DNA of 64,000 nt from Candidatus Omnitrophota bacterium (GCA_024231025.1 JAAEQW010000090.1:21490-85489), one strand, 5' to 3'. Positions 45,261 through 64,000 are shown, numbered from the stretch's first letter. Made by a program: numbers and translations. Notes: generated by a model not told the origin, from the letters alone.

Positions 45261-47071
45261 AATTTAACTCTTTCTAGATAATCAACTATCTCTCTTAATT
45301 GATCAAACGACAACTGCATACCCACCTTATCAACCGCACCCGCTGCAAACCGAGCCATATCGCAAGCCTCAAACAATTGCCTCATTTTATCTATGATATT
45401 TTTGTCGATACCTCCTAAAACAGCAATCTCATCAACAAAATTTATGGTAATTCCAGCAGAAGCAAGATGAAATTTATCACCCAAATACTCCTGCAAAGTC
45501 TTAAACGCAATATTATAAAAATCCTGAGATTTGCCCGAAACCATTAGATGCCTAGCTCGATTGATCCCAATTTTCGCCTTTTTTGGAGCTTGAAGTCTGC
45601 GCGCATAACGACTATCGGTTCTTAGTCGTTTGGTTTCTAAGAAAACTACTGCTGCAACAGCCGCAATGAAAACAATTAAAAAATGAAATATTATAAATCC
45701 TAATTTATTGTGCAAATAATGATCTTTCCTTCTAAGTTGACCGACATCCTCTTTAATATAAACTATATCCTCACCTACAACATCCTTGGCATAAGTTACA
45801 CCGCCATCGCCCGATTCAAACATTTGTGCCTCATCTAAAATCGTACCGCCTTCAACAACGATCGCTGTTGGCTCATTAGTAATTGTCAAATATTCGCCCA
45901 CCTTAGGATTAAAAAAAGAAAAACCTATAGCCGGCATCTCATTAATCGTGCTCTTTTTAGGAATCACCACCTGCTCAAAAAGTTTACCACTCGAGGTTGA
46001 TGTTACTTGCGGATCATAAATTTTGAAATCATCTCCTAAGTTAAGATCGATCAAATTAACTGTTTTGAAATTTCCATCTCCTGAAACTACCATTTTTAAA
46101 GTAATCGGATCGCCAACTTTAACTTTTTTTGGACTTATCTCTACATCAAAATTAAAATCACCAACAGCTCCATTAAAATTATCAGGCTTACCGGCAACCG
46201 GTAAATCTTTTATTTCAATATTTTCTTCAGGTGCAGATAAATTAAGTGGGTATCTTTGGTAATTGGCAAAAAAATTGTCAAATATATTTCCACCAAAAAA
46301 TCCTGAACCAAAAAAATCATCATCAAACGCAGATGACTTCCTTCTTCGTTTTTCAACTATCAAGTTACAATTTAAACCTACTGGTCCAAAAACAATACTT
46401 CCTGAGCGCAAAGCAAAAACATCAGTTGAAAATTCAATAACATCATAATTAATGCCATTCATTCTTTCCTTGTATTGCCTGGGCTGACTAAAATCACCCA
46501 CAATGATGCCATCTTTTGGAATCTTTGGATATTGGATATCCCTTATCCCTAAATTATCGACGTAAAGCTTAACTTTTAGCGGTATAATTTCATTAACATA
46601 GGCTTTATTTTTACCTAATTCAGCAACTATAAATGCCCTATCTTCTAAATCATAGCTCTCTTGAGGTTGAGAACCCCCCCCTGATGCGGCTATTTTATTT
46701 GCAACCTCTATGTTAACGGGTAGCGAAGAATAGTCGATGCCCTTATGATTAATGGTAATCGAAGGAATCACAAAGCTGCCCTCTTTTAAAGGGATTAAAA
46801 TATAGTTGTGAGTTATCGAGCTTGAAACTTGCCCATTAACAATTGACATTTTGGTTGATGGTCCTAAATACCGCACGTCAAAACCATCAATTTCCGGCAG
46901 CTGCGGTCTTTCGATGCTTCCAATGCCGCCAAAAGTAAGGCTCAATGTTGCAGTTGATCCGATTGAAACTCCACTACGATCAACACTAGCCTCAAAGCTA
47001 ATATCTGCGGCTAAAAGTGTCATACTTAACAATAAGAATAAAAGTACAAAAAACTTGCTCTTCACTACCAA
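45257..47071 (-). CDS. batD: BatD-like protein (oxygen-tolerance operon; large exported beta-rich protein with a C-terminal TM)
   Basis: Its size, signal peptide, C-terminal TM helix and position between the TPR proteins of a vWA/MoxR operon match BatD. Confidence 0.65.
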   Translation of the reverse strand: MVVKSKFFVLLFLLLSMTLLAADISFEASVDRSGVSIGSTATLSLTFGGIGSIERPQLPEIDGFDVRYLGPSTKMSIVNGQVSSSITHNYILIPLKEGSFVIPSITINHKGIDYSSLPVNIEVANKIAASGGGSQPQESYDLEDRAFIVAELGKNKAYVNEIIPLKVKLYVDNLGIRDIQYPKIPKDGIIVGDFSQPRQYKERMNGINYDVIEFSTDVFALRSGSIVFGPVGLNCNLIVEKRRRKSSAFDDDFFGSGFFGGNIFDNFFANYQRYPLNLSAPEENIEIKDLPVAGKPDNFNGAVGDFNFDVEISPKKVKVGDPITLKMVVSGDGNFKTVNLIDLNLGDDFKIYDPQVTSTSSGKLFEQVVIPKKSTINEMPAIGFSFFNPKVGEYLTITNEPTAIVVEGGTILDEAQMFESGDGGVTYAKDVVGEDIVYIKEDVGQLRRKDHYLHNKLGFIIFHFLIVFIAAVAAVVFLETKRLRTDSRYARRLQAPKKAKIGINRARHLMVSGKSQDFYNIAFKTLQEYLGDKFHLASAGITINFVDEIAVLGGIDKNIIDKMRQLFEACDMARFAAGAVDKVGMQLSFDQLREIVDYLERVKL

Positions 47072-47907
47072 TCCTTTAACACCTTAATTGCCTTACCCTT
47101 ATTTAGCTCTTTGGTATAAAGCCCCCTGGGCTCGGCTTGCTGACGATAATCTTCTAACAACATTTGAGCCTGTTGAGCGCTCATCGCTTGGGCATCATTT
47201 TTACCTGAACCACTATCATTTTGCGCACCATCTTCTTTGTTTGATTCGGATAACTGTTGGTTGCGATTCTCATCAGTTTGCTGTTGCTGGCTATCGCTTT
47301 TGTCTTGTTGCTTTTGCTCCTTGGGGCTCTGCTTTGGCTGTGAGCCTTGTTCTTGCTGCGGGTTCTGCTTTGGCTGTGATTCTTTTTGTTGATCTTTATT
47401 TGAATCACATTGCTTATTTTCTTGTTGTTGTATTTTTTCCTGCAAGCGCTTAAGCTCTTCTTCCACTAAATCATAATTATACTGAGCATCTTGGCTTTCG
47501 TCATCACTTTCTATAATTTTTTTGTAATGACTCAGAGAGCGTTTTAGTAAATCGACTGCGGCGGTCAGATTGCTATCTTCATGCGCTGCTCCATGCATAT
47601 ATTCAGAATTAGCAAGATTATAAAATGATTTTTTTTGCAAATCTTCGCTTTCTGAAATAATTGCCTTTTGAAAATGTTCAATCGCACGAGAAAAATCTTC
47701 CATTTTGTATAACGCTGCACCAAGATTAAAATTTATTAAATCTGATTCGGGCCGCTCACTCAAGGCCTGACTATATTTGCTTTCGGCTTTGTCGAATTCG
47801 CCATTATTGTATAATACATTGCCTTGATTTATTTTTCCGCGTAAAGATGCCGCTTGAATCGGAAAAGCAATAGTCAAAGTAATTATTATCAAATAGACAT
47901 TTTTCAT
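47065..47907 (-). CDS. batC: BatC-like TPR protein with a Gln/Lys-rich low-complexity tail
   Basis: Signal peptide, TPR repeats, then a QQENKQ...QPKQNPQQEQGSQPKQSPKEQKQQ tract. Confidence 0.6.
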   Translation of the reverse strand: MKNVYLIIITLTIAFPIQAASLRGKINQGNVLYNNGEFDKAESKYSQALSERPESDLINFNLGAALYKMEDFSRAIEHFQKAIISESEDLQKKSFYNLANSEYMHGAAHEDSNLTAAVDLLKRSLSHYKKIIESDDESQDAQYNYDLVEEELKRLQEKIQQQENKQCDSNKDQQKESQPKQNPQQEQGSQPKQSPKEQKQQDKSDSQQQQTDENRNQQLSESNKEDGAQNDSGSGKNDAQAMSAQQAQMLLEDYRQQAEPRGLYTKELNKGKAIKVLKDW

Positions 47908-48902
47908 ATTTTTCTTCTTCTGTCAACAAAAGTATTCACCAGTAACAACATAAGAGCAATCATCAAAGGTATCTGAAAACGCTCAGTATAAAGCTTGCTC
48001 TTTTCTTCTTTTATATTGCGCTTTTCAAACTTTGAAAGTTTTTTCTCATAAAGCGATACCAAACCAAAATCGGCACCACCCGCACGCACATAAGCCGCCT
48101 TAGTGCTAGAAGATATGTATTTAAGAAGCTCTTCGTTTAATCTTGATTTAACAACGTTACCGTCATTATCTTTTAGAAACATTTTTTTGCCATTCTCATC
48201 GGTTAATTGTATTAGCTCACCATCTTGCGAACCAATACCTAGACAAAATATTTTTACCCCTTCAGCTTTAGCCTTATTAACAAGTTTCTCTAAAACGCTG
48301 CGATTGTGGTCTTCACCATCGGTTATTATTATCATAATTTTATATTTGCTTTCGCCTTCATCGTAACTTTCAAGCGCAGTGCTAATAGCCGAAGCTATCG
48401 ATGTCCCACCAATAGGAATAGAGTTTACATTTAAGTCATCAAGAGCCAGCAAAAATCCGCCATAATCAGCGGTTAAGGGGCACTGTAAAAAAGCACTTCC
48501 GGCAAAGCCCACCAAACCAATGCGATCGCCGTTCAATTTACTTATTAAATCACGTATCGCCAACTTTGAACGAAGCAAGCGATTAGGCGCAACATCACTG
48601 GCTAACATACTTTTTGATGTATCAACAGCAATTATGACGTCTAATCCTCTTCGTTGAATTGGAAGCCATTTAAATCCCGCTTGGGGTCGCATTAACGCCA
48701 ATAACGAAAAAATAAAAACTAAGACAATTAAAAAGCCCTTTAGCTTATGGTTACTCACAGAATAAGCAATTCTAGGAAGCAACTTCATATCAACAAAAGA
48801 GCTAATATCCTTTTTGCGTTTTTTAGCCGCCCAATATAAAAATATTACTACAGCAAATACTGCCCAAAACATATTGATAAAATAAAAATGACCAAATCTC
48901 AT
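47904..48902 (-). CDS. batB: vWA-domain protein BatB
   Basis: Two N-terminal TM helices and a vWA MIDAS motif (DTSKSM...TDG). Confidence 0.8.
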   Translation of the reverse strand: MRFGHFYFINMFWAVFAVVIFLYWAAKKRKKDISSFVDMKLLPRIAYSVSNHKLKGFLIVLVFIFSLLALMRPQAGFKWLPIQRRGLDVIIAVDTSKSMLASDVAPNRLLRSKLAIRDLISKLNGDRIGLVGFAGSAFLQCPLTADYGGFLLALDDLNVNSIPIGGTSIASAISTALESYDEGESKYKIMIIITDGEDHNRSVLEKLVNKAKAEGVKIFCLGIGSQDGELIQLTDENGKKMFLKDNDGNVVKSRLNEELLKYISSSTKAAYVRAGGADFGLVSLYEKKLSKFEKRNIKEEKSKLYTERFQIPLMIALMLLLVNTFVDRRRKI

Positions 48903-48903
48903 A

Positions 48904-49899
48904 TTATGGTAACACCCGTAAAACCGTATTAGTTAAAATTACCTCCATTAAAAGCAAAATTAAAGCCGGCAACAAAAACCAACTAAATAACTCCTTATGG
49001 CGCATAAAGCCTTTGTCTTGGATTATTGTTTTTTCCAAACTGTCAATCTCCTTATATATTTCACGCAGCGATTCGGTATCAACCGCTCGATAATATCTGC
49101 CTTCGGTCTTTTGCGCAATTTGACGCAATAATTCTTCATCCAAGGGTATTTCCACATTGCGATACGCCTGCCGACCAAAAAGATCATTCACCGGATACGG
49201 CACCAGCCCCTCACTCCCAACACCGATGGTATATATTTTTATACCTAAAGCCGCAGCAGCTGCCGCAGCCGTTTGAGGCGATATTTCTCCGGTGTTATTT
49301 ACACCGTCGGTTAATAGTATAATTATTTTGCTCTTAGCCGCTGTATTTTTAAGACGATTAACCGACGAAGCTATTGCCGAACCAATGGCAGTACCATCTT
49401 CAATAACGCCTATTTCTACTCTTTTTAAATTAGAAGATAGCCAATCATAGTCTAAAGTTAACGGGCAAACCGTGTAAGCTTTAGCAGCAAAAGCCACTAG
49501 ACCAATGCGATCATGTTCTCGCATAGTTATAAAATCATCAACCACACCTTTAACTGCATCTAAACGATTGCTTCTTGATGATCCGCGATTAAAATCTTCA
49601 GCCAGCATACTCCCTGATGAGTCAATCGCAAGGGCAATATCAATGCCCTCGGTTTCTAAATTGCTTATCTCAAGTGGCAGTCGGGGTCGCGCCAAAGCAA
49701 ACAAAAACAAAACAACCACTAGTAATCTTAAAAAAATAAGATTCTCCGCACACACAACCCTTAAGCCAGGTTTAAAATCTTTTACTAAATCTTTTGATGA
49801 AAATTTTAGACTGTTTACTCTTTTGTGGTTTCGCATCCATAGCGCGCCTAAAACAACAACGGGTACGAAAGCTAAAATTAAAACATCTTTAAAAATCAT
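48904..49899 (-). CDS. batA: vWA-domain protein BatA
   Basis: N-terminal TM, vWA MIDAS motif (DSSGSM...TDG) and a C-terminal TM. Confidence 0.8.
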   Translation of the reverse strand: MIFKDVLILAFVPVVVLGALWMRNHKRVNSLKFSSKDLVKDFKPGLRVVCAENLIFLRLLVVVLFLFALARPRLPLEISNLETEGIDIALAIDSSGSMLAEDFNRGSSRSNRLDAVKGVVDDFITMREHDRIGLVAFAAKAYTVCPLTLDYDWLSSNLKRVEIGVIEDGTAIGSAIASSVNRLKNTAAKSKIIILLTDGVNNTGEISPQTAAAAAAALGIKIYTIGVGSEGLVPYPVNDLFGRQAYRNVEIPLDEELLRQIAQKTEGRYYRAVDTESLREIYKEIDSLEKTIIQDKGFMRHKELFSWFLLPALILLLMEVILTNTVLRVLP

Positions 49900-50390
49900 G
49901 TCTTTAGCCTTTCGGAAGTATCCCCTATAAGCTTATAGGCGCAACTTAAGCTTTTTTCCATTTCTTCCGTTTGTGGATCGTACTTAGCAAATTTAACCAT
50001 ATCGCAATGGTTTAAAAAGTCCTTTAACATGTTTTTATTTTCAACACCAATACTGTCAAAACTAACAAGATAAAATAAAAATTCCTCAGTAGTCATTTCC
50101 GGCGCTCTAATGTCGAAACGATCTTCAAGATATGTTCTAACTATCAAAGAAAGTTCAACATAATAAGGCACAACACTTAAATTTTTATTTTTAAGTCTGT
50201 CCAATGCTTCCAAAGCCAAAACATAAGCTGGTATTTTTGGTTTAATATCAAGTGGTTTTTCTTTTTTCCGATGCTTTTTAATAATAAAAAATACGACAAC
50301 ACCTATTACAGCTAATATGATTAGGGCAATCAACCAAGCGTAATTAAGCCCAAAATTTATCGGTCCTTTTATATCTTTTAATTCAACCAT
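49896..50390 (-). CDS. Small membrane protein (DUF4381-like position in the Bat operon)
   Basis: One TM helix; its placement between the DUF58 gene and batA matches the conserved operon architecture. Confidence 0.45.
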   Translation of the reverse strand: MVELKDIKGPINFGLNYAWLIALIILAVIGVVVFFIIKKHRKKEKPLDIKPKIPAYVLALEALDRLKNKNLSVVPYYVELSLIVRTYLEDRFDIRAPEMTTEEFLFYLVSFDSIGVENKNMLKDFLNHCDMVKFAKYDPQTEEMEKSLSCAYKLIGDTSERLKT

Positions 50391-50391
50391 A

Positions 50392-51270
50392 TCATGAGAG
50401 TCTTTTTTCTCGTATCCTAAAAAATTTAATCAATTCTTTTTCGTAAGGGTTATCACTTCTTACATCAATCATATCTACACCTGATAAACGCAAAAGCCGC
50501 TTGCGCTCATTTATGCGCTGATAAGCTTGTTGTTTATATTTATTAATTATTTTTTTGTTGTTAGTATCAACTGTTAAAACACTATCGGTTTCAAAGTCAC
50601 GCAAACACAACAAGCCAACGCTGGCAAGCTCCATTTCACGAATGTCAGTAATGCTTATTGCCACAATGTCATGGCGCTTATTGGCTACGGTTAGTGATCG
50701 CTTAAAATCAGGAGCAAAAAAATCAGATATCAAAAAGCATACACTTTTTCTCTTTATTACTCGATTTAAATAATCAAGAGCCATATTAATATCTGTGCCT
50801 TTTCCCTGGGGCTTGAAATATAACGCCTCTCTTATGACTCTTAAAACATGGCCCAAGCCTTTTCGCGGCGGAATAAATTTCTCTATCCTATCGCTGAATA
50901 TGATGAGACCAACCTTGTCGTTATTCTTAATTGCCGAAAGAGCCAAAACCGAACAAAGCTCAGCAGCTAATTCACTTTTTAATTTATTAGTCGAACCAAA
51001 ACGGCAAGATGCTGAAACATCCAACACCAACATAACTGTCATTTCACGCTCTTCGACAAACTTTTTTATGTATGGATGCCCCATACGCGCAGTAACATTC
51101 CAATCGATTGATCGCACATCATCGCCAGGTTGATACGCACGGACTTCGTCAAACTCCATGCCTCGGCCCTTAAACACACTGTGATACTGCCCACCAAAAA
51201 CATCCGTAACCATGCGTGAGGTGGTTATTTGAATACGCCTTACTTGCTTTAATACTTCTTTAGGTATCAC
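50392..51270 (-). CDS. DUF58-domain protein (vWA-like partner of MoxR)
   Basis: Conserved DUF58 core with a vWA-like fold lacking a complete MIDAS; immediately downstream of moxR. Confidence 0.75.
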   Translation of the reverse strand: MIPKEVLKQVRRIQITTSRMVTDVFGGQYHSVFKGRGMEFDEVRAYQPGDDVRSIDWNVTARMGHPYIKKFVEEREMTVMLVLDVSASCRFGSTNKLKSELAAELCSVLALSAIKNNDKVGLIIFSDRIEKFIPPRKGLGHVLRVIREALYFKPQGKGTDINMALDYLNRVIKRKSVCFLISDFFAPDFKRSLTVANKRHDIVAISITDIREMELASVGLLCLRDFETDSVLTVDTNNKKIINKYKQQAYQRINERKRLLRLSGVDMIDVRSDNPYEKELIKFFRIREKRLS

Positions 51271-52259
51271 GGTACTTCTATTTCTTCAAATACTCTTTTT
51301 ATAATGCCTTCTGATGTTTTCTCTTGCGCTTCCGCCTCATAACTTACTGCGATCCTGTGCCTTAAAACATCGAAACCAACCGACTTTACATCCTGAGGAG
51401 TTACATAGCCCCTGCCTTGGATAAAGGCATAAGCCTTAGCAGCTAAAGTAAGGCATATGCTTGCACGCGGAGAAGCACCGTATTGAATAAGCTCAACTAA
51501 ATCATTTAGTTTATACTTTTGCGGATCTCTGGTAGCAAATACAACATCCAATATGTACTTCTCTATTTTTTCATCTAAGTAAACTTCATCAACTACACCA
51601 CGAGCACGTATAATATCATCGGGTGTGACTATATTCTCAACTTTTATTTTTTTATCAGTGAAACTCATGCTTTTAAGAATTTTGTGTTCGTCCTGCCACG
51701 AAGGATAAGTGACATTTACCTTCAACATAAACCTATCAAGTTGAGCTTCAGGCAAAGGATAAGTGCCTTCTTGTTCGATCGGATTCTGAGTAGCCAAAAC
51801 TAAAAACGGATTATCAAGTTTAAAAGTCTCTTCGCCTATTGTAACTTGACGCTCTTGCATCGCTTCTAGAAGTGCGCTTTGCACCTTAGCCGGTGCGCGA
51901 TTTATCTCATCGGCTAATATAATGTTAGCGAAAATCGGCCCTTTTTTAACTGAAAAACTACCCTCTTTAGGGTTATAAATGAGTGTTCCAATAAGATCTG
52001 CCGGTAAAAGATCGGGGGTAAACTGCAAACGCTGAAACTTGGTTTTAATCGCTTGAGAAAGCACACTTACCGATAAAGTCTTAGCCAAACCGGGCACACC
52101 TTCAATCAAAATATGTCCGTTAGCTAAAAGGCCAATTAGAAGGCGATCGATAAGATCCTTTTGACCAATAATAGTTTTTGATATCTCCATTTTTAAAGCT
52201 TCTACAAATGCGCTCTCCTTTTTGACTTTTTCATTAATAACCGTAATTCCTTCCGACAT
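51267..52259 (-). CDS. moxR: MoxR-family AAA+ ATPase
   Basis: GHILIEGVPGLAKT Walker A, ILADEINR Walker B and a MoxR-type C-terminal domain. Confidence 0.9.
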   Translation of the reverse strand: MSEGITVINEKVKKESAFVEALKMEISKTIIGQKDLIDRLLIGLLANGHILIEGVPGLAKTLSVSVLSQAIKTKFQRLQFTPDLLPADLIGTLIYNPKEGSFSVKKGPIFANIILADEINRAPAKVQSALLEAMQERQVTIGEETFKLDNPFLVLATQNPIEQEGTYPLPEAQLDRFMLKVNVTYPSWQDEHKILKSMSFTDKKIKVENIVTPDDIIRARGVVDEVYLDEKIEKYILDVVFATRDPQKYKLNDLVELIQYGASPRASICLTLAAKAYAFIQGRGYVTPQDVKSVGFDVLRHRIAVSYEAEAQEKTSEGIIKRVFEEIEVP

Positions 52260-53206: not shown

Positions 53207-55006
53207 TTACAACAAATAATCCACCAGTCTTTTGATCTGCGCCAAATCAAATGGTTTACCAACCATTGGTATAGCTTTTCGCTTTATATATTCATCTAGT
53301 TTTTCAATCTCCACTTCATATCCCGACATGATTAAAATCGGAATATTTTCGGTATCCACGTTTTCTTTAAGCCTGCCAACCACTTCATAACCGCTCATCT
53401 TCGGCATATTCATATCAAGCATTATTAGATCAGGTGGCTCAGCTATTATTTTATCTAGAGCTTCTTGCCCATCGTTGGCTTCTCTGAAATTAACATATCC
53501 CGTTTCTTGCAAAATTCTTATTAGAGAATTCACTATTGTCGGCTCATCATCAACAACCATTATTGTCTTTTTCAATCTCTCAGCTTTTTCATTGGTTAAA
53601 CCGCCCTCACACTTCTTGAGCAAATCGTCAACTGTGCTACCATCTCTAGGGTAAATTGCATTTCCGTAAGAAAAATTTATTGGAGGTTTTTCTTCAATCT
53701 CAAAAACAACTTTTTTTATTACATGCTTTAATTTCGCATTAACCTCTACAATGCTAACCGTATCAGCTTCTACCACAACAACCATTTTATCTTCCGCTAT
53801 CTCGTTTATAAACTCTCCGCTTCTTAGTTCGCCTTTCAAAGCTTGCAATATGATAGAAGAAATTTCCCGCGCCTTATCTTGCCCGAAGGTTTTCTTTAGA
53901 TGGTCGTAATTGTTTATTTTAAAAAGAATCATAGAAAGCTCTTCACCAATCTCACAAGCTAAAGCAATCTTATTGTTCGTCATCTCATGCAGTGCTTTCT
54001 GTTCAGTATATTTTGGTATAGTAAAAGAAAATTTCGCCCCTTTGTCTTTTCTACTCGTCACTCGCATTTTTCCCCCTTGAGCCTCTATGATACCTTTGGA
54101 AATCGCCAAACCAAGCCCTGTGCCCTTTGCCCCGGGGCCATTTTTTCTTCCAAATTGCTGGAATTTATTGAATACCTTAGTCAAATCCCCCTCGGCAATT
54201 CCATAACCGGTATCAGCTACTGAACACTCCATGCAGTTTTCTTGCTCAATAAGAAAAATTTTTATGTATCCATCATCAGTAAACTTAATGGCATTGCTGA
54301 TCAAATTCACTAAAATCTGCATTGTCTTATCTTTATCTGCATAAACTTTTACGTCTTTTTCAAGCAATTCGCTACTCAATTGTAAACCCTTCTTGCCGGC
54401 TTGTGTAGAAAAATTAGATATCGCATCCGTGATTAATTCTGCCATAGACACCGATTCTTTGTTCATCTGGATTTTTCCGGACTCTATTTTAGACACATCT
54501 AAGAGATTGTTAATTATGCGAATTAATCGATCAATATTTCTTAAGCTATTAGCTAAGGCGTTTCTTTGTTTTTCTGTAGTTTCACCAAGCAATCCTTCAA
54601 AAACTAAAGAAGTTGCTTCTTTTATGGGGGTTAGAGGGGTGCGCAATTCATGAGAAACCGTATCAATAAAATCATTTTTAAGCTGGTCGAGCTTCTGAAG
54701 TTCATTGTTTTTTTGTTCAAGTTGATTATATAGAGTATTAATGCCCTTTTTCGTCTTATCTAATGCCCAAACTTGTATTTCCAGTTCATCCTTGGCTTCA
54801 GAAAGCTGCTTTGTTCTGTCTTGCACTCGACTTTCCAACTCTTTGTTGAGGTCGTCAAGCTTTTTGGATTTTTTCTCAAGATCGGCATATAGAGTCTTGA
54901 TTTCCTGACTCGTTTTGTCTCTGCCCCACTTAGAATCATCCAATTCCTTTTTGCAAAGGCGCAATTCCTCTTCGAGTGTTTTAATCTTTTCTTTATCGCT
55001 ATTCAC
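53207..55006 (-). CDS. Hybrid sensor histidine kinase: N-terminal coiled coil, HisKA, HATPase_c, a divergent middle domain and a C-terminal receiver. It has a GTG start.
   Basis: H-box SHELRTPL, N-box and G1/G2 motifs (DTGYGI, GTGLGLAI), and a C-terminal REC (MVVDDE...LDMNMPKMSG). No TM helix, so it is cytoplasmic. Confidence 0.8.
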   Translation of the reverse strand: MNSDKEKIKTLEEELRLCKKELDDSKWGRDKTSQEIKTLYADLEKKSKKLDDLNKELESRVQDRTKQLSEAKDELEIQVWALDKTKKGINTLYNQLEQKNNELQKLDQLKNDFIDTVSHELRTPLTPIKEATSLVFEGLLGETTEKQRNALANSLRNIDRLIRIINNLLDVSKIESGKIQMNKESVSMAELITDAISNFSTQAGKKGLQLSSELLEKDVKVYADKDKTMQILVNLISNAIKFTDDGYIKIFLIEQENCMECSVADTGYGIAEGDLTKVFNKFQQFGRKNGPGAKGTGLGLAISKGIIEAQGGKMRVTSRKDKGAKFSFTIPKYTEQKALHEMTNNKIALACEIGEELSMILFKINNYDHLKKTFGQDKAREISSIILQALKGELRSGEFINEIAEDKMVVVVEADTVSIVEVNAKLKHVIKKVVFEIEEKPPINFSYGNAIYPRDGSTVDDLLKKCEGGLTNEKAERLKKTIMVVDDEPTIVNSLIRILQETGYVNFREANDGQEALDKIIAEPPDLIMLDMNMPKMSGYEVVGRLKENVDTENIPILIMSGYEVEIEKLDEYIKRKAIPMVGKPFDLAQIKRLVDYLL

Positions 55007-55055: not shown

Positions 55056-55637
55056 TTATTTGGGAATATTTTTTAGGTGCAAAAAATCTTTTGCGAGGAT
55101 GGATTTTTTATTCATATCATAAGTTATAACCGCCGGATGAAACATCGGCATAATTTTAACTCTGCCATAAGAAGCAGGCGCTATAAAAACACTGCCATGA
55201 ATTTTTGTTATGCCTTGCACTTTAGCTTCGAGTCCAAATTTTTTTAAAATATAGGAGGTGGCAAAATTACCCAAACAACATATAATACTCGGACGTATAC
55301 GCTCAATTTGTTGGTCTAAGTAAGGAGTGCAAGCAATTATCTCATCACTTTGAGGATTCCTATTCTTAGGCGGGCGGCATTTTAAGATGTTACCGATAAA
55401 AACTTCTTCTCGCTTTAGACCTGCATGCCCTAGAAGTTCATCCAACTGAGCACCGGCTTTACCGCAAAAAGGCCTGCCTTGGGCATCCTCATTTGCCCCC
55501 GGTGCCTCTCCGATAAACATAACCGAAGCCGACAAATCCCCCTCACCAACAACAGCATTAGTGCGAGTCAAGCCCAAAGAACACTTGCTGCAAGTGGATA
55601 TCTGCTGATTAAGCTCTCCGATGTCTGCTAACTCCAT
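55056..55637 (-). CDS. Uracil-DNA glycosylase, family 4
   Basis: GEAPGANEDAQGRPFCGKAG motif and the overall family-4 UDG architecture. Confidence 0.8.
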   Translation of the reverse strand: MELADIGELNQQISTCSKCSLGLTRTNAVVGEGDLSASVMFIGEAPGANEDAQGRPFCGKAGAQLDELLGHAGLKREEVFIGNILKCRPPKNRNPQSDEIIACTPYLDQQIERIRPSIICCLGNFATSYILKKFGLEAKVQGITKIHGSVFIAPASYGRVKIMPMFHPAVITYDMNKKSILAKDFLHLKNIPK

Positions 55638-55788: not shown

Positions 55789-58700
55789 CTATGTTGGTGT
55801 TCGTTCAATGCGAATAATTTGGAAAGTAAATCCTTGAAAAGTCTTAATATCAAAAGGAACAACAAAATCCCCACTGTAGGGGCGGCGCTTGCGTCCGCCG
55901 GCATCCTGCACGCCGACATTTTGCACAGTCACCTCATCTATGTTAAGCATCCCTGCACTAATATCAATACCGCCGGGGGTAGTAGTTACTTCGTTAGACT
56001 CGGCGCCGACAGATTTTTTCCCGGCGGTTATAGCCGGCGCGAATGAAGACAGCTTCCGTTGAGCAATTTTATAAAACATCTCCTCATACTTACCCCACTC
56101 ATCCTTATGAAAATCCTCATACTCCTCGGCAAGAGCTTCTAGCTGCTCAAAGCTCATGCGCTCGATTACCCAAGCATGATACGGGGTAAGTTGGGTTTCG
56201 TTTTCGCTGAAGTATCGCTTCTGACGTTGGGCGGCAACATCATGCTCCTCTTCGTCGATATGTTCCGTCCACTCATGGTCAATTACCTCACCCAGAGCAA
56301 AAAAGGTAAAATTATCTTGGTTGATATAATTGGAATTAACGATTATTGATAAGCTGCCATCTTCTTCTTGCCGACCGCAAGCATCCATGGTTTCAGGCAG
56401 CTGGCTAGATAGATAAACTCTGATCTGGCGGTTTCTAAACTTATCAGCATCTTCCATATCCATTGGAGAAGATCTTAGAAATTCGATTAGTGTTTCTTTA
56501 TCGAAGTTTAATTCTTGCCGAGGATCAACCAACTCTTCAAACTGCCCATCAGAAAGCTTTGGTTCCGACACATCAATAACTCTGCGGCTGGGACGTTTTA
56601 GGGGGCCGGGTTTTGATTTACGGGTGTAGGCGATATGTCCTAGAAGGTTTTTGTAGATGCTTTGAGCGATCACTGAGAAATCTTTTTCTTTTGAACTTAC
56701 CTCAGCGGCCGCATACAAACTGAAGAGATGATTGCGATCGATGCTTACCCCTTTATCAGTTAAAGAGTATCCTTCGTCTAATTTGATCTCCCCTGAATCA
56801 TGAAGAGTGCGAAGAATATCTTGCTGCTCCTTAGTCAATAGTTCGATTAAATTTTCGACTAAGCTTCTATCATAAAACTCAAGCAAACGCTGGCCTTCTT
56901 CTGGAGAAGCTACTTTGACATACGTTTTAATCATCCGCAACAATTCAAAGAGATTACGATTATATCGATTTGTTTCTGGTAGAGCATCATTCTCCAAAAC
57001 AGCTTTGATCACCCTACCCACAAAAGGCTCAAAGAGCTCTCGGGCACCTTCTCTAACCCCTTTCATATCCTTTATTTCGTTAAGAACCACGTCCTTCTCT
57101 CTTTGAGAAAGATTGACCTCAGAAGCAAATTCCTCAAATGCAGTAATATCTCGATCGTACTCAGCGATCACATCCACCAATAAATCAAAGATCTCTTCTC
57201 CAGGACTCTTAGCAATATTGAGCAAGGCACCATCTTTGGAAATTTTTAAATCCAAAGGTAGAGAAAAAATCTTACCTAAATTAAGAGAAATGTTGATATC
57301 TCTTCCTAATTGCTCGCCGATATCAGCTTTATAACGATTGGTGCTAAAAATATAGTGCACTAATGACTTGTTTGCTTCTAATTCACTGACCCCTAAAGTT
57401 TTTAATCCGGCGGCAAAATCTGCATAGAGCGGGTCGCGATCATTCCAATTGCGCGGGAGATTGTCCATGGCAATCGGTATAAGCTTCAAAAAAAGTTTAG
57501 GGTTAAGTTCAGTATACTCGCCCCAATGCATAATCACAAAGGCGGTAAATAATCCTAGCAACTCGGAATCGCGAAGTTGCCTCTCAATCTCCTCAGGGGT
57601 TTGATCCTCTAAGCTGCTAAAAAGACTGGCTAATGCAAAATTGCGCGTTTGATCATCGCCGTAGCGAAATACCTGCGCAAAGACTTCCAAGCGTGCCTGC
57701 CAAGGGATTCTTGAAAACACACCTCTAGTCACTGTATTTATCTTATTGGTGGTTTCTGGGTCCTCAACGATTTTAAGTACAGTTGAAAGTAGCACCGCGT
57801 AGAAACTAAGTTCTTCTTTGCTTGCCTCAAGCTCTTCAAGGACTAAAAACCCTTCAGCTAATATTTCGTCTATCCACTCATTGGCTTTCCTACTCTGGGT
57901 AGCTTCAATAAGAGTAACTACGCTTCGAGCGGCAGAGATAAAACGAGGGATATTGGTTAAGTCGATATAAGTTTCTGTTCGTCGCAATTGCCTAGCCACG
58001 GCCATAGCTTCTTTGTGGCGTTTTCGATAACGCTGATAAAGCTTGTCAATCTTTTTAGCTTCACCTGAATCTGCAACCTGACGGCTATGGAGCTCTTCTA
58101 CCTTCAACGCTTCTATTTGCTTTCGTTCATCTTGCATAAATTCAATAGTTTGCTCTCCGACCTCCCAAAAAGTTTTGTCAGTAATTTGTGCGATATCCTC
58201 ATCATCGAAGATATTAACAAGCACACCAAAAGCGTTGGAGTAATGTTTTTCATCAAAAGGCTTATTCATATCACGAAAATCAAAGACAGAAGTAGTTTTG
58301 GCGATCAAGATATAAAGTTCATTTTTGATCTCCTTGAGAGAATCCTCGTCAATAAAAGGTCTGTAAAAGATCCCCATCGCTTCCATACCTAACGCTCGAT
58401 TCTGACTGAAAAACTCACTCGCCTGTTTCTTAATAATCTTAACTATAAAACCAACGGCATCATCCCGAGCAACAGAATCCATACTTAGAAGAAACTGCCC
58501 TACAAATGTAGGTAACCGTCCTGGCTCAAGGGCAAGAAAGATCGGCTCAAGTTTTTGAAAAAATTCTTTCCGCAATCTTTCATCATCGATAAACGGCATA
58601 TATTGCGTAACTAAGCTACTAATTAAATTCTCGATATCTTGCTGGTTTGGCATCCGACTTTCTTGGGGTTCTTCTTGGTCTTGAGCCCTATCTATTTTTC

Positions 58701-61700
58701 CAATTGCCACCTCGGCTTGATAACGAACCGCTTCGTAGTCATCATTTTTTTTCAATTTACCAAGCATTGGGAGTGCTGCCCAAGCTGCTATGCCAAACTC
58801 TCCTAAAGCCCTAGCACTATTTGCACGAACAAGTTCATCACTATCCTCTAACGCTATAATCAAAGCTGACGTGGCTTTTTTAGCTGCGGGGCCGATATCT
58901 CCAAGAATCTTGGCACTTTTAGCACGCACCACCGGATCAGGATTGTTTAACGTCTCAATTAAACCATCAATCATAGCCTGATCTATACTCACATCTTCTA
59001 AACTATTCTCTATCTTCTCAATTGCCTTCTGGGCTGCGGTGCGAACAAAGTCTTTAGAATCATTCTTTGCTAATTTGCGAAGCTGCACGAGTGCAGGTTC
59101 TGCTGCGGGGCCGATATAACTTAAAGCCCAAGCGCTACCTTCACGAGTATCGTGGTTGCTATCTTCTAATGTACTAATCAATAATAGCATGACCTCATCT
59201 GATACGGAGCCAATTTGCCCCAAAGCCCAACTACTAACCATACGAACCTTTGCTTTTTGATCTGCCAATCTCTCAATCAAATCTGGCACCGCTTTCTTTG
59301 CAGCAAGACCAATCCTCCCAAGAGCAGTCGCACTATCGGAACGAACATTATAATCAACATTCTCTAATCCTCTAATCAATCTATCAATTTCAGCTTCTTC
59401 AACGCTGGCATCCTCTGCTGATCCCTTCTCTATCTTCTCGATTGCCTCTTGGGCTGCGGTGCGAAGTTTTTCGTTGAAACCCTGCTTTGATAAATCGCTA
59501 AGACGCGTAAGTGTAGGTTTTGCGGCGGGGCCGATTTCTCCAAGAGCCCAGGCGCTGTTGTAACTAACGTCATTATTTTTATCGGTCAATGTTCCAATCA
59601 AATCTGACACGGCCTCTTTTGCTGCGGGGCCGATATCTCCAAGAGCCCCGGCGCTGTTTTGACGAACATTCTCATCTTCATCCTTCAAGGCTTCAGCCAA
59701 AGCGGACACTGCCTCTTTTGCTGCGGGGCCAATTTTTCCAAGAGCCCCGGCGCTATTACTACGAACAGACTTATTTTCATCCTTCAAGGCTTCAATCAAA
59801 GCGGACACTGCTTCTTTTGCTGCGGGGCCAATATCTCCAAGAGTCCCGGCGCTATTCCTACGAACAGACTTATTTTCATCCTTCAAGGCTTCAATCAAAG
59901 CGGACACTGCTTCTTTTGCTGCAGGGCCAATATCTCCAAGAGTCCCGGCGCTATTGGCGCGCACCTTGAAATCAGGATCCTTCAATGCCTCAATCAATGC
60001 TGACACAGCAGGTTTTGCTGCGGGGCCGATCTTGCCTAAAACCCTGGCGCTATCCTTACGAACCTTAGGGTCAGGGTCCTTTAGCCCTTTAATCAATCTA
60101 TCAACTTCAGCATCTTCAGTACCTACACTCTCTGACCCCTTCTCTATCTTCCCAATCGCCTCTTGGACTGCGGTGCGAACCTCTTCATCGGGATCATTCT
60201 TTGCTAATTTGCGAAGACGCACAAGTGCCGGTTCTGCTGCGGGGCCGATTTCTCCAAGAGCAGTAGCGCTATTGGCGCGAACAACCCAATCTTTATCCTT
60301 CAAGGCCTCAATTAAAGATGACACAGCAGGTTCTGCGGCGGGGCCGATCTGTCCTAAAGCCCAAGCGCTATTCCAACGAACATACTTATTTCCATCCTTC
60401 AAGGCTTTAGTCAAAGCTGATATGGCCTCTTTTGCGGCGGGGCCGATCGCTGCAAGAGCTCTGGCGCTGTTGACGCGTACCTTGGAATCAGGATCCTTCA
60501 ATACATCAATCAATGCTGACACAGCAGGTTTTGCTGCGGGGCCGATCTTGCCTAAAACCCTGGCGCTATCCTTACGAACCTCAGGGTCAGGGTCCTTTAG
60601 CCCTTTAATCAATCTATCAATTTCAGCATCTTCAACGCCGGCATTCTCTGCTGATCCCTTCTCTATCTTCTCGATTGCCTCCTGGGCTGCGGTGCGAACA
60701 AATTCTTCAGAATCATCCTTTGCTAATTTGCGGAGCTGCGCAAGTGCAGGTTTTGCTGCGGGGCCGATTTCTCCAAGAGCCCAGGCGCTATGGCTGCGAA
60801 CAACCTTATCTTCATCCTTCAATGCTTCAGCCAATGCCAACACGGCCTCTTCTGCTGGGGAGCCAACCCCTCCAAGAGCATCGGCGCTATCGGCACGAAC
60901 CTCAGGATCAGGGTCCTTTAACCCTCTAATCAATCTATCAACTTCAGCATCTGTTGTCGATGTCTTTGCTTTCAAAGTGCCAAAGATCTTTATTGTAATT
61001 TTGCTCTGGCTGATATCGCCTAAGGCTTTTTTGACCTCATCGAGTGGGATTTGGATTTCATTCTGACCAGGGTCAACGGAAGTAACATAGATATAACCTT
61101 CACTAAGCCCCTCGCCTGAAAATTCAATAACAATATATTCTTCTCCAATTCCAAATCCATAATGATTAATAGCATAGCTACCCTCTAACTCGGAGAAATA
61201 CTGGCCATCATGTGTCTCGTAAGTAATCTCTCCTTTTTTCTTGATCTCTGCAATAGTCTCTGGTATTTTTGCTACATCTGTTAGTCCAACTGATCCTGCT
61301 ACCATGGCATGCACTGATCGACCAGAATCATTATAAATGGCGTTGAATATTATCTCAAGATCGGGTTTACCCTTCTCTTTGTGCGCTGCGGCTGATTGGG
61401 GGGATTTTTCTTTTTTAACTACTTTTTGATCACCGAGTTTTTGGGCTGCCATTAAGGCAAGCCTTGCGTAAAGATCCTTAACTTTCTGCTGATCTGGTAC
61501 TGAAGCGGAAGCCAAATCAGCCCTTGTCGGGCTACCAAAGCCATTTACTAAGCTGCCCTTAACGTACTTATCAAAAAACTCTTGTCGTTTCTGGTAACCA
61601 CCAGTATACATAGTGTCGTCTGAAACATTCCCCGTCTGCAAAAAATTAAGATAATCCTTCGTAAACAGACCATAAGAAAGGTCGTTAATATTTAACCATT

Positions 61701-64000
61701 CAAGAATAATATCATTGTCAAAAAAGATGGGAAGTAAGCTATCGTAATACTTACCACTTGACCCCCATTTCTCTTCTGAGGTATCGCCAACCAAAAGACT
61801 AACGATATTAACCGGTGAGTCAATTTGTTGATTGACATAGTTAACTATCGCCTGGTATCGAGGTAAGTCTTTCTTTTTGATCGAGGTAAGTGTCTCATCT
61901 ACATGTCGCAAAATGACGACTAGTTCGGATTCACGCCAAGGTCTAAATAACTCTGAATTAATTTCCACCGAGAATTTGGGTAATTTCAGACAATGACCTT
62001 GCAGACTATGTTTCTGACTGATATACATCCATATTTTTGCGGGATGTGTTTCTGTATCCAAGTTTATGGGGTCTATACTAGTTGATCCTGGGGAAATTTG
62101 TTCTTGATAGCGCTGACTTAAATTACTGGCGGCATTAAAGATGTCATTGAGGACTCGGTAGTCAATTGTTTGGGCATTGTTTTCATAAGAAGTGATTACA
62201 TCGCTTAAGACACCGAGACCCTCGGACAAATCAAGACTAGCTACAACTTGCTCAATCGCCTGAGCCAAAGCAAAATCCTCTATCCCTATGCCTGGATGAA
62301 GAGCAAGCATCTGCTCTACTAGACTATAATCTGGTAAGGGGGCGGCTTTTGCTAAATTACGCAAGGAGTCTTCTAGCTCTTTCTGTTGAGAGAGAAATTC
62401 CTCCTTTGCTTTACCAACGGCGGTCTTTGAATGTTTCTTGAGACGCTCTATCTCTTCGTTCAACTCAAACATTCTTTCCTCTAGAGGTGATCGAGAAACT
62501 TCTTGTTCGGGTGGTTTGATATTTTCTTGTGAATCTTGTTGGCCCATTAATCTTTCATCATCCTGTTCAACATCAGAAGTTAAATCAACCTCTATCCACC
62601 CACCCCCCTTAGGATCCATAACTTCAAAGATCGCATGGCCTTCAGAGCTAAAAAGCTGCTTATTCCCATTTGCGTCCGATACCCCGGTAACTATTCTGGC
62701 GGGGATCCCTAAATAGCGGGCCAATAGCATGCCATACATCGCCAGAACAGAACATTGCGCAGTAATCTTTTCTCTTTGATCGAATGATTCGTCATCGAAG
62801 CCATGATTCAACCACCTGGCTGGGGGCACGCCAAACATCTTACCGGTTTCAATCCCCAACGAATAACGAAACCGATCAGCGATAATTCTAATGACCCCTT
62901 CAAGCCTAGTATTAAAATCTAATCTTCTAAACCTATCCAAGCGCTCTTTTAAAATATCCGGGGGCTGATCATCTTCGGGGAATTGCAAATAGTGTTCGAT
63001 AAGCTCCTCAACAGCCTGGAAGGTTTTGTTGGGCTTGCGATAATCTATCCTGTAAGAGACTCTCTTTGTTTCAGAACTTGATCCATCAAAATGAAGAATA
63101 ATGGTCCCATAACTATCCTGAGAAGAAGTAAACTTGTGGCTAGACTCAATGCTATCGATATCGATAGTGGAATTACTATCTGCCATCAATATCATGGTGT
63201 TGCCTACAACTTCTCTTGCAATCGTATTGGTTCTGCCTGTTTTTTCTCCTTGAGGAAGATCTTCAAAAGGCAATTCTGCCTGACGAAGGCGCCCATTTTC
63301 AACTACTGAATAGACTGCTTCTCGTAAAAAATTCACATTCTCTCTGGAGGTGGCGATAAGTGGCCCTTTCTCCTTTATCTGTCCACCTTCAAAATCGCTA
63401 TCTGGCAATGCCATGCCGCGAGGTTGATAAACCTCTACCACCTCTTCATAAGCACTTACCCCTAAAGCTTGACCACCAGATTTGATAACCTCTGCAAGTT
63501 GCGAAGCTTCAAGATAAGGAAGCCAAAACAAGATATGTCTGGGGGCATCACCACTTAAATAATAAAGTTCTTTAGCTTGTCCAACCGCAGAATCAAAAAT
63601 TGAGAACTCTTGATCACCGTCAATGCTATCTTCCTCTAAATCTCCCGCCAAATTGACCGCTGAACCAGCAAGACTTCCAGCAACGATCGCCATCGCCGAA
63701 TAACCAACCTTGCTCTTACGGAAACGATCAAAACCAGTACCTTTAGGACCTACCGAATCCAAAGAAGATTGGTAACGCTCCAGATTCTCGATGTAATTTT
63801 TAAGAAACTCTCTTCTGCGAAGCAACTTCTGATTTTCCGGATTAAAATCAAGTTCGGATTCGGCTTGCTCTTCTAAGTTACGGTATACTTCTAATCTTGC
63901 TTCGATCAACTTTCTCTGCCGGTCAAATACTTCTTGGCGCTGGGCCTGAATCTTGACAGCCCCTTCTTGATCATCCTCCCAATACTTTAGCGAATCTTCA
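55789..64000 (-). CDS. Giant multi-domain protein (more than 2730 aa; the reading frame stays open to the window edge, so the N-terminus is outside the window). It has a transglutaminase-like Cys protease domain (CSVLAMYGMLLARYLGIPARIV...GHAIFEV...GWIEVDLT, about 62550-62770), a coiled coil, about 25 tandem 31-aa PBS-lyase-type HEAT repeats (about 58540-60960) and a long helical region. It ends in the C-terminal module shared with giants 1 and 2 (GGIDISAGMLNIDE...PFDIKTFQGFTFQIIRIER).
   Basis: Continuous ORF; the listed Met is really a TTG and the upstream codons stay open to position 64000. The Cys-His-Asp transglutaminase triad context was read directly. The HEAT unit is ...LKDxDxxVRxxAAxALGxIGPAAKxAVxAL.... 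Confidence 0.85.
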   Translation of the reverse strand, partial: EDSLKYWEDDQEGAVKIQAQRQEVFDRQRKLIEARLEVYRNLEEQAESELDFNPENQKLLRRREFLKNYIENLERYQSSLDSVGPKGTGFDRFRKSKVGYSAMAIVAGSLAGSAVNLAGDLEEDSIDGDQEFSIFDSAVGQAKELYYLSGDAPRHILFWLPYLEASQLAEVIKSGGQALGVSAYEEVVEVYQPRGMALPDSDFEGGQIKEKGPLIATSRENVNFLREAVYSVVENGRLRQAELPFEDLPQGEKTGRTNTIAREVVGNTMILMADSNSTIDIDSIESSHKFTSSQDSYGTIILHFDGSSSETKRVSYRIDYRKPNKTFQAVEELIEHYLQFPEDDQPPDILKERLDRFRRLDFNTRLEGVIRIIADRFRYSLGIETGKMFGVPPARWLNHGFDDESFDQREKITAQCSVLAMYGMLLARYLGIPARIVTGVSDANGNKQLFSSEGHAIFEVMDPKGGGWIEVDLTSDVEQDDERLMGQQDSQENIKPPEQEVSRSPLEERMFELNEEIERLKKHSKTAVGKAKEEFLSQQKELEDSLRNLAKAAPLPDYSLVEQMLALHPGIGIEDFALAQAIEQVVASLDLSEGLGVLSDVITSYENNAQTIDYRVLNDIFNAASNLSQRYQEQISPGSTSIDPINLDTETHPAKIWMYISQKHSLQGHCLKLPKFSVEINSELFRPWRESELVVILRHVDETLTSIKKKDLPRYQAIVNYVNQQIDSPVNIVSLLVGDTSEEKWGSSGKYYDSLLPIFFDNDIILEWLNINDLSYGLFTKDYLNFLQTGNVSDDTMYTGGYQKRQEFFDKYVKGSLVNGFGSPTRADLASASVPDQQKVKDLYARLALMAAQKLGDQKVVKKEKSPQSAAAHKEKGKPDLEIIFNAIYNDSGRSVHAMVAGSVGLTDVAKIPETIAEIKKKGEITYETHDGQYFSELEGSYAINHYGFGIGEEYIVIEFSGEGLSEGYIYVTSVDPGQNEIQIPLDEVKKALGDISQSKITIKIFGTLKAKTSTTDAEVDRLIRGLKDPDPEVRADSADALGGVGSPAEEAVLALAEALKDEDKVVRSHSAWALGEIGPAAKPALAQLRKLAKDDSEEFVRTAAQEAIEKIEKGSAENAGVEDAEIDRLIKGLKDPDPEVRKDSARVLGKIGPAAKPAVSALIDVLKDPDSKVRVNSARALAAIGPAAKEAISALTKALKDGNKYVRWNSAWALGQIGPAAEPAVSSLIEALKDKDWVVRANSATALGEIGPAAEPALVRLRKLAKNDPDEEVRTAVQEAIGKIEKGSESVGTEDAEVDRLIKGLKDPDPKVRKDSARVLGKIGPAAKPAVSALIEALKDPDFKVRANSAGTLGDIGPAAKEAVSALIEALKDENKSVRRNSAGTLGDIGPAAKEAVSALIEALKDENKSVRSNSAGALGKIGPAAKEAVSALAEALKDEDENVRQNSAGALGDIGPAAKEAVSDLIGTLTDKNNDVSYNSAWALGEIGPAAKPTLTRLSDLSKQGFNEKLRTAAQEAIEKIEKGSAEDASVEEAEIDRLIRGLENVDYNVRSDSATALGRIGLAAKKAVPDLIERLADQKAKVRMVSSWALGQIGSVSDEVMLLLISTLEDSNHDTREGSAWALSYIGPAAEPALVQLRKLAKNDSKDFVRTAAQKAIEKIENSLEDVSIDQAMIDGLIETLNNPDPVVRAKSAKILGDIGPAAKKATSALIIALEDSDELVRANSARALGEFGIAAWAALPMLGKLKKNDDYEAVRYQAEVAIGKIDRAQDQEEPQESRMPNQQDIENLISSLVTQYMPFIDDERLRKEFFQKLEPIFLALEPGRLPTFVGQFLLSMDSVARDDAVGFIVKIIKKQASEFFSQNRALGMEAMGIFYRPFIDEDSLKEIKNELYILIAKTTSVFDFRDMNKPFDEKHYSNAFGVLVNIFDDEDIAQITDKTFWEVGEQTIEFMQDERKQIEALKVEELHSRQVADSGEAKKIDKLYQRYRKRHKEAMAVARQLRRTETYIDLTNIPRFISAARSVVTLIEATQSRKANEWIDEILAEGFLVLEELEASKEELSFYAVLLSTVLKIVEDPETTNKINTVTRGVFSRIPWQARLEVFAQVFRYGDDQTRNFALASLFSSLEDQTPEEIERQLRDSELLGLFTAFVIMHWGEYTELNPKLFLKLIPIAMDNLPRNWNDRDPLYADFAAGLKTLGVSELEANKSLVHYIFSTNRYKADIGEQLGRDINISLNLGKIFSLPLDLKISKDGALLNIAKSPGEEIFDLLVDVIAEYDRDITAFEEFASEVNLSQREKDVVLNEIKDMKGVREGARELFEPFVGRVIKAVLENDALPETNRYNRNLFELLRMIKTYVKVASPEEGQRLLEFYDRSLVENLIELLTKEQQDILRTLHDSGEIKLDEGYSLTDKGVSIDRNHLFSLYAAAEVSSKEKDFSVIAQSIYKNLLGHIAYTRKSKPGPLKRPSRRVIDVSEPKLSDGQFEELVDPRQELNFDKETLIEFLRSSPMDMEDADKFRNRQIRVYLSSQLPETMDACGRQEEDGSLSIIVNSNYINQDNFTFFALGEVIDHEWTEHIDEEEHDVAAQRQKRYFSENETQLTPYHAWVIERMSFEQLEALAEEYEDFHKDEWGKYEEMFYKIAQRKLSSFAPAITAGKKSVGAESNEVTTTPGGIDISAGMLNIDEVTVQNVGVQDAGGRKRRPYSGDFVVPFDIKTFQGFTFQIIRIERTPT
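58540..60960. repeat. Tandem 93-bp coding repeats (the HEAT-repeat array) with several units near-identical at the nucleotide level
   Basis: Recurring strings such as gctgcggggccgatatctccaagag(c/t)cccggcgctatt and ttcatccttcaaggcttcaatcaaagcggacactgc at 93-bp phase. Adjacent units at about 59600-59950 are more than 90% identical. Confidence 0.7.

Follow-up and report, generated by a model that had tools for sequence, protein, structure and literature searches.

A transglutaminase-like core and a HEAT-repeat array in a long and probably membrane-anchored Omnitrophota protein

A long gene lies at one end of the 64,000-nucleotide stretch of Candidatus Omnitrophota DNA analysed here (JAAEQW010000090.1:21490-85489; this whole stretch is called the window, and positions are counted from its first base). 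We consider it likely that the product of this gene, the NCBI protein MCP4652057.1, is a membrane-anchored protein of an uncultured Omnitrophota member that combines a scaffold with a thiol enzyme, and that its HEAT array grew by tandem duplication. From the N- to the C-terminal end, the order of its parts is a hydrophobic anchor with a module of approximately 400 amino acids, a second hydrophobic stretch, a transglutaminase-like core, the HEAT array, a helical region, a module that we call HEWTEH, and a tail. That a transglutaminase-like core and a PBS-lyase HEAT array reside in one gene had been proposed in an earlier annotation of the same DNA (the original prediction), and was borne out by the Pfam matches, the intact triad of the core and the presence of both within one open reading frame (ORF).

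The gene and its transglutaminase-like core

The ORF that carries both the core and the array is on the minus strand at 55789–63909, as are all features of this gene described below; the ORF-finding tool assigned it 2,706 amino acids and a TTG start. The same frame continues without a stop up to base 63999, the window edge from which the translation was made, so that the window end truncates the gene. MCP4652057.1 ("hypothetical protein GY858_01555", 4,029 amino acids; entry P0002 in our set) was identical to the window translation at 2,736 of 2,736 C-terminal residues. On the basis of the ORF list and this identity, the in-window part of the gene (55789–63999, with the stop codon at 55789–55791) was assigned to residues 1294–4029. 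The first 1,293 residues are encoded outside the window, where the gene starts approximately 3.9 kb past base 64000; hence, a gene that the original prediction took as complete has one third of its length beyond the window. NCBI has filed the protein under a Candidatus Omnitrophica/Omnitrophota bacterium metagenome-assembled genome (MAG), on a contig of 89,766 bp, and the phylum given here follows the NCBI naming.

MCP4652057.1 is the sole member of its 90% cluster. An exhaustive HMMER search using the last 963 residues recovered MCP4652057.1 at full length together with six partial relatives, and word-indexed homologue searches with the N-terminal 1,016 and the C-terminal 963 amino acids of the window part gave no match. 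Two scans of metagenome contigs found no copy of the transglutaminase-HEAT gene; the matches from the second scan were dismissed, one being a duplicate of the locus L002 described below and the other (L005) a spurious high-GC contig of PEP-CTERM-like character. The GC content of the gene (56001–64000) is 42–45% throughout, compared with 36–41% in the rest of the window, and this elevation is not limited to the Ala/Gly-rich HEAT array.

The core was located by Pfam at 62584–62760 (PF01841, Transglut_core; 35.2 and 36.6 bits against a cut-off of 23, with E-values of 1.6e-8 and 6.1e-9), in agreement with the earlier placement at about 62550–62770. A search of the core region as a single sequence against PDB sequences matched no chain. 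A profile built from two sequences, MCP4652057.1 and its only collinear homologue (P0007, 3,696 amino acids), gave 17 PDB matches, and the first 15 of these (ranks 1–15) were transglutaminases, including TgpA (6g49), factor XIII, TG2, protein 4.2 and the putative cysteine protease 3isr. The alignments inspected were those to TgpA 6g49 and to three factor XIII sequences. In the former, the Cys (within AQCSVLA), His (within GHAIFEV) and Asp (within IEVDLT) paired with residues of the C…HAW…D motifs of TgpA; in the latter, the Cys paired with the active-site cysteine of the GQCW motif. The aligned residues of these solved enzymes are their catalytic residues. The three counterparts in MCP4652057.1, numbered over the full-length protein, are C1709 (62752–62754), H1748 (62635–62637) and D1765 (62584–62586), and all of them are kept in P0007. 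The alignments thus confirmed a putative enzyme core with an intact Cys-His-Asp triad.

TgpA of Pseudomonas aeruginosa was the best PDB sequence match of the core, with motifs that align in the order C…GIPARxV…HAx.E…W…D.T. Both proteins are membrane-anchored, MCP4652057.1 as judged by hydropathy. In contrast, the likeness between them is limited to approximately 80 residues (E 0.034), their flanking domains are unrelated, and TgpA has no HEAT array.

The original prediction had labeled the core a protease. The PF01841 superfamily includes transamidases, PNGase-type amidases and proteases, and "protease" is therefore one of several chemistries, none of which is favored by the sequence. A serious alternative, to which we would give a little less than an even chance, is that the label is wrong and that the domain is a non-enzymatic or non-protease module, such as a cross-linking transamidase, an amidase or a binding fold. 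The breadth of the superfamily speaks for this alternative, as does the observation that the best structural relatives by sequence, namely TgpA 6g49, factor XIII and TG2, are cross-linking transglutaminases. The preservation of the triad, both here and in P0007, makes a catalytically dead fold unlikely, however, and the lack of any single favored chemistry also counts against this alternative.

The comparison with P0007 helped to separate the parts of the protein. BLASTP aligned the two proteins collinearly at residues 716–1169, 1446–1802 and 3163–3475 of MCP4652057.1. The second of these blocks surrounds the core (62473–63543) and is 38% identical between the two proteins. The third is the helical region downstream of the array (57454–58392); neither Pfam nor PDB sequences gave a match to it, and its alignment to P0007 (25% identity) places it in the conserved backbone. 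When scanned with Pfam, P0007 showed a transglutaminase core and no HEAT match, and between its second and third collinear blocks it has approximately 610 fewer residues. The core and the HEAT array of MCP4652057.1 are 545 residues apart. Since P0007 keeps the transglutaminase block without the HEAT array, this comparison argues that the two are separable modules. Neither the N-terminal nor the C-terminal part of the window protein matched any PDB sequence.

Hydropathy analysis of the full-length protein revealed hydrophobic segments only at residues 16–34 and 616–659. The approximately 3,370 residues that follow the second stretch contain no further hydrophobic segment, and the entire in-window protein is therefore predicted to lie on one side of the membrane, although a hydropathy plot cannot tell which side holds the bulk of the protein.

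Units, blocks and duplications of the HEAT array

A manual parse showed that the HEAT array spans 58681–60951 and comprises 22 units, arranged in five blocks of 3, 5, 7, 4 and 3 units. The original prediction had placed the array at 58540–60960 and described about five super-repeats, both of which agree well with the parse; its count of approximately 25 units of 31 amino acids does not. A hidden Markov model (HMM) of the internal units recovered 17 canonical units, representing heads and internal units, and found none elsewhere in the 4,029 residues; the remaining five are block-end units of 30 amino acids that are too divergent for the HMM and were assigned by eye. The unit length is 33 amino acids, as evidenced by the manual parse and by the period of 99 nt reported by Tandem Repeats Finder (TRF). 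Matches to Pfam over the array were strong for HEAT_2 (PF13646; E 5.5e-111, 363.5 bits against 27.7), HEAT (E 5.4e-79), HEAT_EZ (E 3e-68) and HEAT_PBS (PF03130; E 4.6e-37, 122.7 bits against a cut-off of 20.9). The term PBS-lyase names the type of repeat and not the function, and the protein is not a bilin lyase, because the NCBIfam lyase models scored far below their cut-offs (CpcE, 122.8 against 330; CpcF, 65.2 against 220; CpeY, 88.9 against 600; NblB, 97.8 against 300).

Each block follows the same plan: (i) a head unit with the signature …D/EAEIDRLIxGLKDPDPxVR…, (ii) one to five internal units of 33 amino acids (12 in total) with the consensus SxLIxxLKDxDxxVRxNSAxALGxIGPAAKxAV, and (iii) a divergent end unit with the pattern …LRKLAKxDxxxxVRTAAQEAIEKIEKGS. 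Linkers of 6–7 residues join the blocks. Block 1 (60652–60951) has three units, a head, one internal unit and an end, and its assignment was based on the manual parse, the unit HMM and helical hairpins in the AlphaFold model. Block 2 (60133–60630; five units, with the head unit at 60520–60630) was defined by the parse and the identity matrices, and block 3 (59419–60114; seven units) by these together with TRF, whose period-99 array falls within it, as do units 11 and 12. The parse and the unit HMM further delimited block 4 (59002–59397; four units), which is more diverged, and block 5 (58681–58980; three units), which is the most diverged. The earlier statement that every super-repeat ends in one sequence holds for blocks 1 and 3, both of which end exactly in AQEAIEKIEKGS, whereas blocks 2, 4 and 5 end in the variants VQEAIGKIEKGS, AQKAIEKIENS and AEVAIGKIDRAQ, respectively.

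A single-sequence AlphaFold model of the array displayed paired helices throughout in an all-alpha fold, at moderate confidence (mean pLDDT 69.6). The confidence dips at the four inter-block linkers (model residues 112–118, 285–290, 522–529 and 661–668), and for this reason the array is better pictured as a string of five HEAT modules than as a single solenoid. Foldseek ranked the designed alphaRep HEAT proteins first (34–44% identity), followed by CAND1, importins, SF3B1 and PR65, and gave a probability of 1.00 for alphaRep, CAND1, importin-beta and PR65. The repeat signature LxxxLxDxDxxVRxxAAxALGxIG is common to this array and to the alphaRep binders (PDB 6fsq, 4xl5 and 6bzx). The array differs from alphaRep and PBS-lyase repeats in having a unit of 33 rather than 31 amino acids and in being split into five capped blocks.

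To describe the relatedness of the units, internal, head and end units were each compared within their own class. Units 11 and 12 (59707–59904) form the only adjacent pair above 90% identity (95% at the nucleotide and 91% at the amino acid level), and differ at 5 of 99 nt and at three residues. The only other pair above this level, units 4 and 9, is non-adjacent: these head units of blocks 2 and 3 lie 516 nt apart and share 98% of their nucleotides. All remaining pairs share 52–89% of their nucleotides: the 12 internal units, apart from the 11/12 pair, range from 52 to 86%, and the most similar end units reach 89%. The original prediction that several adjacent units exceed 90% identity was accordingly an overstatement, and the unit it reported as present twice is not an exact duplicate. 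Its proposal that the array evolves through repeat recombination fared better, inasmuch as growth by tandem duplication is supported by the 99-nt register, the unequal blocks and the two near-identical pairs. At the level of sequence, these two pairs represent two apparently young events of duplication or conversion.

The longest exact repeats in the array are 76 nt (starting at 60581 and 60065, with a spacing of 516) and 65 nt (starting at 59922 and 59823, with a spacing of 99). Both spacings are multiples of three, and recombination between the exact runs would therefore add or remove 172 or 33 residues in frame. Because such in-frame recombination is possible between the 76- and 65-nt runs, the idea of length polymorphism is mechanistically plausible. 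The unequal numbers of units per block, together with the absence of a HEAT match from the shorter, collinear P0007, show indirectly that the array is evolutionarily labile.

Variation within the unit is concentrated at positions 10, 12, 13, 16, 20 and 24, around a nearly invariant framework made up of L3, L7, D9, V14, R15, S18, A19, L22, G23, I25 and G26. Positions 16, 20 and 24 are the x positions of VRxNSAxALGxIG and lie on the second helix; positions 10, 12 and 13 precede the conserved VR and vary as much. Units 11 and 12 differ in residue at exactly these three x positions (16, 20 and 24). The x positions of VRxxAAxALGxIG are reportedly those randomised in alphaRep libraries to make binders, and by this analogy the variable positions 16, 20 and 24 would fit a role as a binding scaffold.

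On the plus strand, the array contains an antisense ORF of 370 amino acids at 59954–61066, rich in Ser (18.6%) and Ala (16.5%), which lies opposite the frame with the HEAT_2 match. It belongs to no Pfam family. In codon-shuffled arrays, antisense open runs had a mean length of 227 amino acids (SD 71), and the observed run of 429 amino acids was reached in 1% of the shuffles, as is expected since a stop-free unit is repeated. The antisense ORF is a by-product of the repeat and no gene, which upholds its earlier dismissal as a spurious Ala/Ser-rich frame.

Modules shared with other large proteins

The window contains two other large ORFs: g1 (9620–20428; 3,602 amino acids), with a HAD and SLOG payload, and g2 (38194–44445; 2,083 amino acids), with a HATPase and methyltransferase payload. 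All three large window ORFs end in a tail of approximately 60 amino acids with the pattern GGID[LIM]…PFDIKTFxGFTFQIIxIE, located on the minus strand at 9623–9829 in g1, at 38197–38382 in g2 and at 55792–55977 in MCP4652057.1, where it reads PGGIDI…PFDIKTFQGFTFQIIRIERTPT. MCP4652057.1 carries the stricter pattern GGID[LIM]-x(25-45)-PFDIxxFxGFTFQIIxIE within 25 residues of the stop. The tail was also found in a paralogue from the same MAG (P0003) and as the terminus of large ORFs from three further MAGs (L001:8207-8380, L002:9980-10150 and L003:9905-10075), and a word-indexed search with a tail profile gave one weak match (P0001). Other payloads of tail-bearing proteins include a ResIII/DEAD helicase with HEAT repeats (L001) and TPR repeats (L002), compared with transglutaminase and HEAT in MCP4652057.1. 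A literature search on the "GGIDL" tail returned no relevant paper.

At the other end of these proteins, MCP4652057.1, g1 and g2 have hydrophobic N-terminal anchors, followed by the module of approximately 400 amino acids (minus strand, 19070–20401 in g1 and 43222–44253 in g2; also L003:6690-7650). Residues 1–422 of MCP4652057.1, encoded outside the window, are 52% identical to the N-terminus of g1 and 41% to that of g2, and the module is 54% identical between g1 and L003. The HEWTEH module, of approximately 190 amino acids (…LPxTMDA…EVIDHEWTE…H…AAxRQ…LTPYH…), occurs twice in MCP4652057.1: copy 1 is outside the window at residues 422–642, and copy 2, which is 39% identical to it, is at 56050–56610. 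It was also present in five other proteins (P0003–P0006 and P0008), and it may bind metal. None of the three modules was found in Pfam, NCBIfam or PDB, and a profile of the HEWTEH module searched against PDB sequences gave no match.

Two of the tail-bearing loci merit a separate description. The ORF at L001:29-8410, of at least 2,793 amino acids, carries the ResIII/DEAD helicase and HEAT repeats, and is thus an enzyme of cytoplasmic type in a family that hydropathy would place outside the cytoplasm. At L003:6690-10123, two overlapping ORFs (747 amino acids with the N-terminal module and 397 amino acids with the tail) resemble one gene of approximately 1,140 amino acids split by a frameshift; the joined gene would be the smallest member having both the N-terminal module and the tail, with almost no payload.

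The recurrence of these modules raises the real possibility, though not the one that we favor, that a dedicated pathway for sorting or assembly uses the three large proteins as cargo carriers; the N-terminal module and the GGIDL…FQGFTFQIIxIE tail would then be export, anchoring or docking signals, and the transglutaminase and HEAT parts an interchangeable payload. The position of the tail at the end of every large ORF of the window, of P0003 and of the large ORFs of three other MAGs speaks for such a pathway, and so do the identities among the N-terminal modules, the entirely different payloads between tail-bearing proteins, and the absence of either module from Pfam and NCBIfam. Against it, the tail lacks a hydrophobic anchor and does not resemble any known sorting motif, and only about eight tail-bearing sequences are known. 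Export machinery was sought next to the tail-bearing genes of L002 and L003 and none was found; the neighbor they share encodes EF-G and the rest are housekeeping genes (QueA, PurH). The cargo idea complements, rather than excludes, the interpretation of MCP4652057.1 as an anchored scaffold with a thiol enzyme. As a tentative proposal, and one that we ourselves regard as doubtful, the anchored N-terminal module and the tail (GGIDL…PFDIKNFQGFTFQIIKIE) would define an undescribed family in which they bracket exchangeable payloads in MCP4652057.1, in its two large neighbors and in at least three other MAGs. Such a family would imply a lineage-specific pathway for sorting, docking or assembly, with the HEAT array as a recently expanded payload insert.

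Evaluation of the scaffold model and comparison with Omnitrophota giants

In the model that we prefer, that of a membrane-anchored scaffold with a thiol enzyme, the HEAT blocks would act as protein-binding platforms that keep partners or substrates close to the thiol enzyme; this domain would in turn cleave or cross-link proteins of the envelope or target proteins. The array would have expanded in frame as single 99-nt units and entire blocks were duplicated in tandem, most recently in the events that gave units 11/12 and the block 2 and block 3 heads, and the exact runs that remain could support further in-frame gain or loss of residues.

Several observations weigh against this model. The PDB matches of the core are each weak (E 0.034–0.5), and the triad alone cannot separate a protease from a transamidase or an amidase. 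The AlphaFold model of the non-repeat residues 101–1016 (window numbering) had a pLDDT of 35.8. A simple interpretation of the N-terminal anchor is at odds with the charges that flank the second hydrophobic stretch. With regard to the array, public data hold no second copy of the gene that could show variation, as is reflected in its single-member 90% cluster, and near-identical units such as 11 and 12 could be under-counted in what is a single metagenome assembly.

This last point leads to the explanation that the near-identical units are an artefact, produced when a longer or different array was collapsed or wrongly joined during short-read assembly. The sequence is indeed a MAG contig, the window and the NCBI protein derive from one assembly and are not independent, and units 11 and 12 differ at only 5 of 99 nt. 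We nevertheless judge an artefact to be quite unlikely: the longest exact repeats, of 76 and 65 nt, are below the usual length of Illumina reads; the frame is intact over 8.2 kb; each unit can be distinguished from all others; and the blocks are built regularly, their heads, ends and linkers staying in register.

Several neighboring genes were identified by their domain content. A complete Bat-type operon is located at 44538–52259 on the minus strand, between the second and third large genes, and encodes a MoxR AAA protein, DUF58, a small ORF, two VWA/BatA-like proteins, TPR, BatD and TPR. A gene for a hybrid sensor (53207–55006, minus strand), with HisKA, HATPase, GGDEF-like and receiver domains and a long coiled-coil N-terminus, is directly downstream of a uracil-DNA glycosylase gene at 55056–55637.

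Prokaryotic conflict systems with repeat sensors have been described (PMC7159879), and the HEAT array could by comparison be viewed as a hypervariable sensor resembling an immune receptor and coupled to a protease effector, with much of the variation at surface positions of the unit, the youth of some units and the MoxR-vWA gene set 3.5 kb away in its favor; we rejected this view as very improbable, since Pfam found no NTPase or STAND module in the protein, the MoxR/DUF58/VWA/BatA/BatD/TPR genes are those of a standard Bat-type operon separated from it by the sensor kinase and uracil-DNA glycosylase genes, most units are 52–89% identical and so are not kept homogeneous, and the protein is membrane-anchored.

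Two studies of long proteins provide a framework for the anchored scaffold protein. In the first, HEAT_2 was the most frequent domain in the giant proteins of Omnitrophota, which also frequently carry HATPase_c, HAD, Lysine_decarbox and TPR (10.1101/2023.11.21.568195), and "Archaeovorins" were described as encoded by genes of >90,000 bp and having >30,000 amino acids (West-Roberts et al., 2023; 10.1101/2023.11.21.568195). In the second, a preprint from 2026, "tandem-repeat scaffolds" were recognised as a class that includes a HEAT example and in which the nucleotide tandems have mostly decayed; 80% of the long-protein sequence clusters were singletons (10.64898/2026.06.07.730766). MCP4652057.1 shares with these proteins the phylum and the richness in HEAT repeats, has an N-terminal region without a known domain, and is likewise a sequence singleton. 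The HATPase_c, methyltransferase, HAD and Lysine_decarbox/SLOG domains of the neighboring large proteins are all common in Omnitrophota giants.

There are also differences. At 4,029 amino acids, MCP4652057.1 is below the thresholds of both studies (>30,000 and at least 10,000 amino acids). It has only three hydrophobic segments rather than many, and no SecA-DEAD, C39 or glycosyltransferase domains. Of the Archaeovorin set of glycosyltransferases, methyltransferases, glycosyl hydrolases, peptidases, NUDIX and frequent HEAT, the protein itself contains only HEAT and a possible thiol peptidase, and a methyltransferase domain is present in one of its large neighbors. A term search of the two papers (10.1101/2023.11.21.568195 and 10.64898/2026.06.07.730766) found no mention of a transglutaminase core, and a literature search for transglutaminase-HEAT fusions returned nothing specific. 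Taken together, MCP4652057.1 fits the known HEAT-rich long proteins of Omnitrophota at a smaller scale.

Long proteins rich in HEAT repeats characterize the Omnitrophota, a phylum of presumed predators or epibionts. With approximately 4,000 amino acids, one enzyme core and five separable HEAT blocks, the protein described here is small enough to be expressed and tested piecewise, and its array appears to have been caught shortly after two duplication events. The aspect of repeat polymorphism is ordinary and unproven. The main interest lies in the shared end modules, as known from few sequences: they may be the handle by which long Omnitrophota proteins are sorted.

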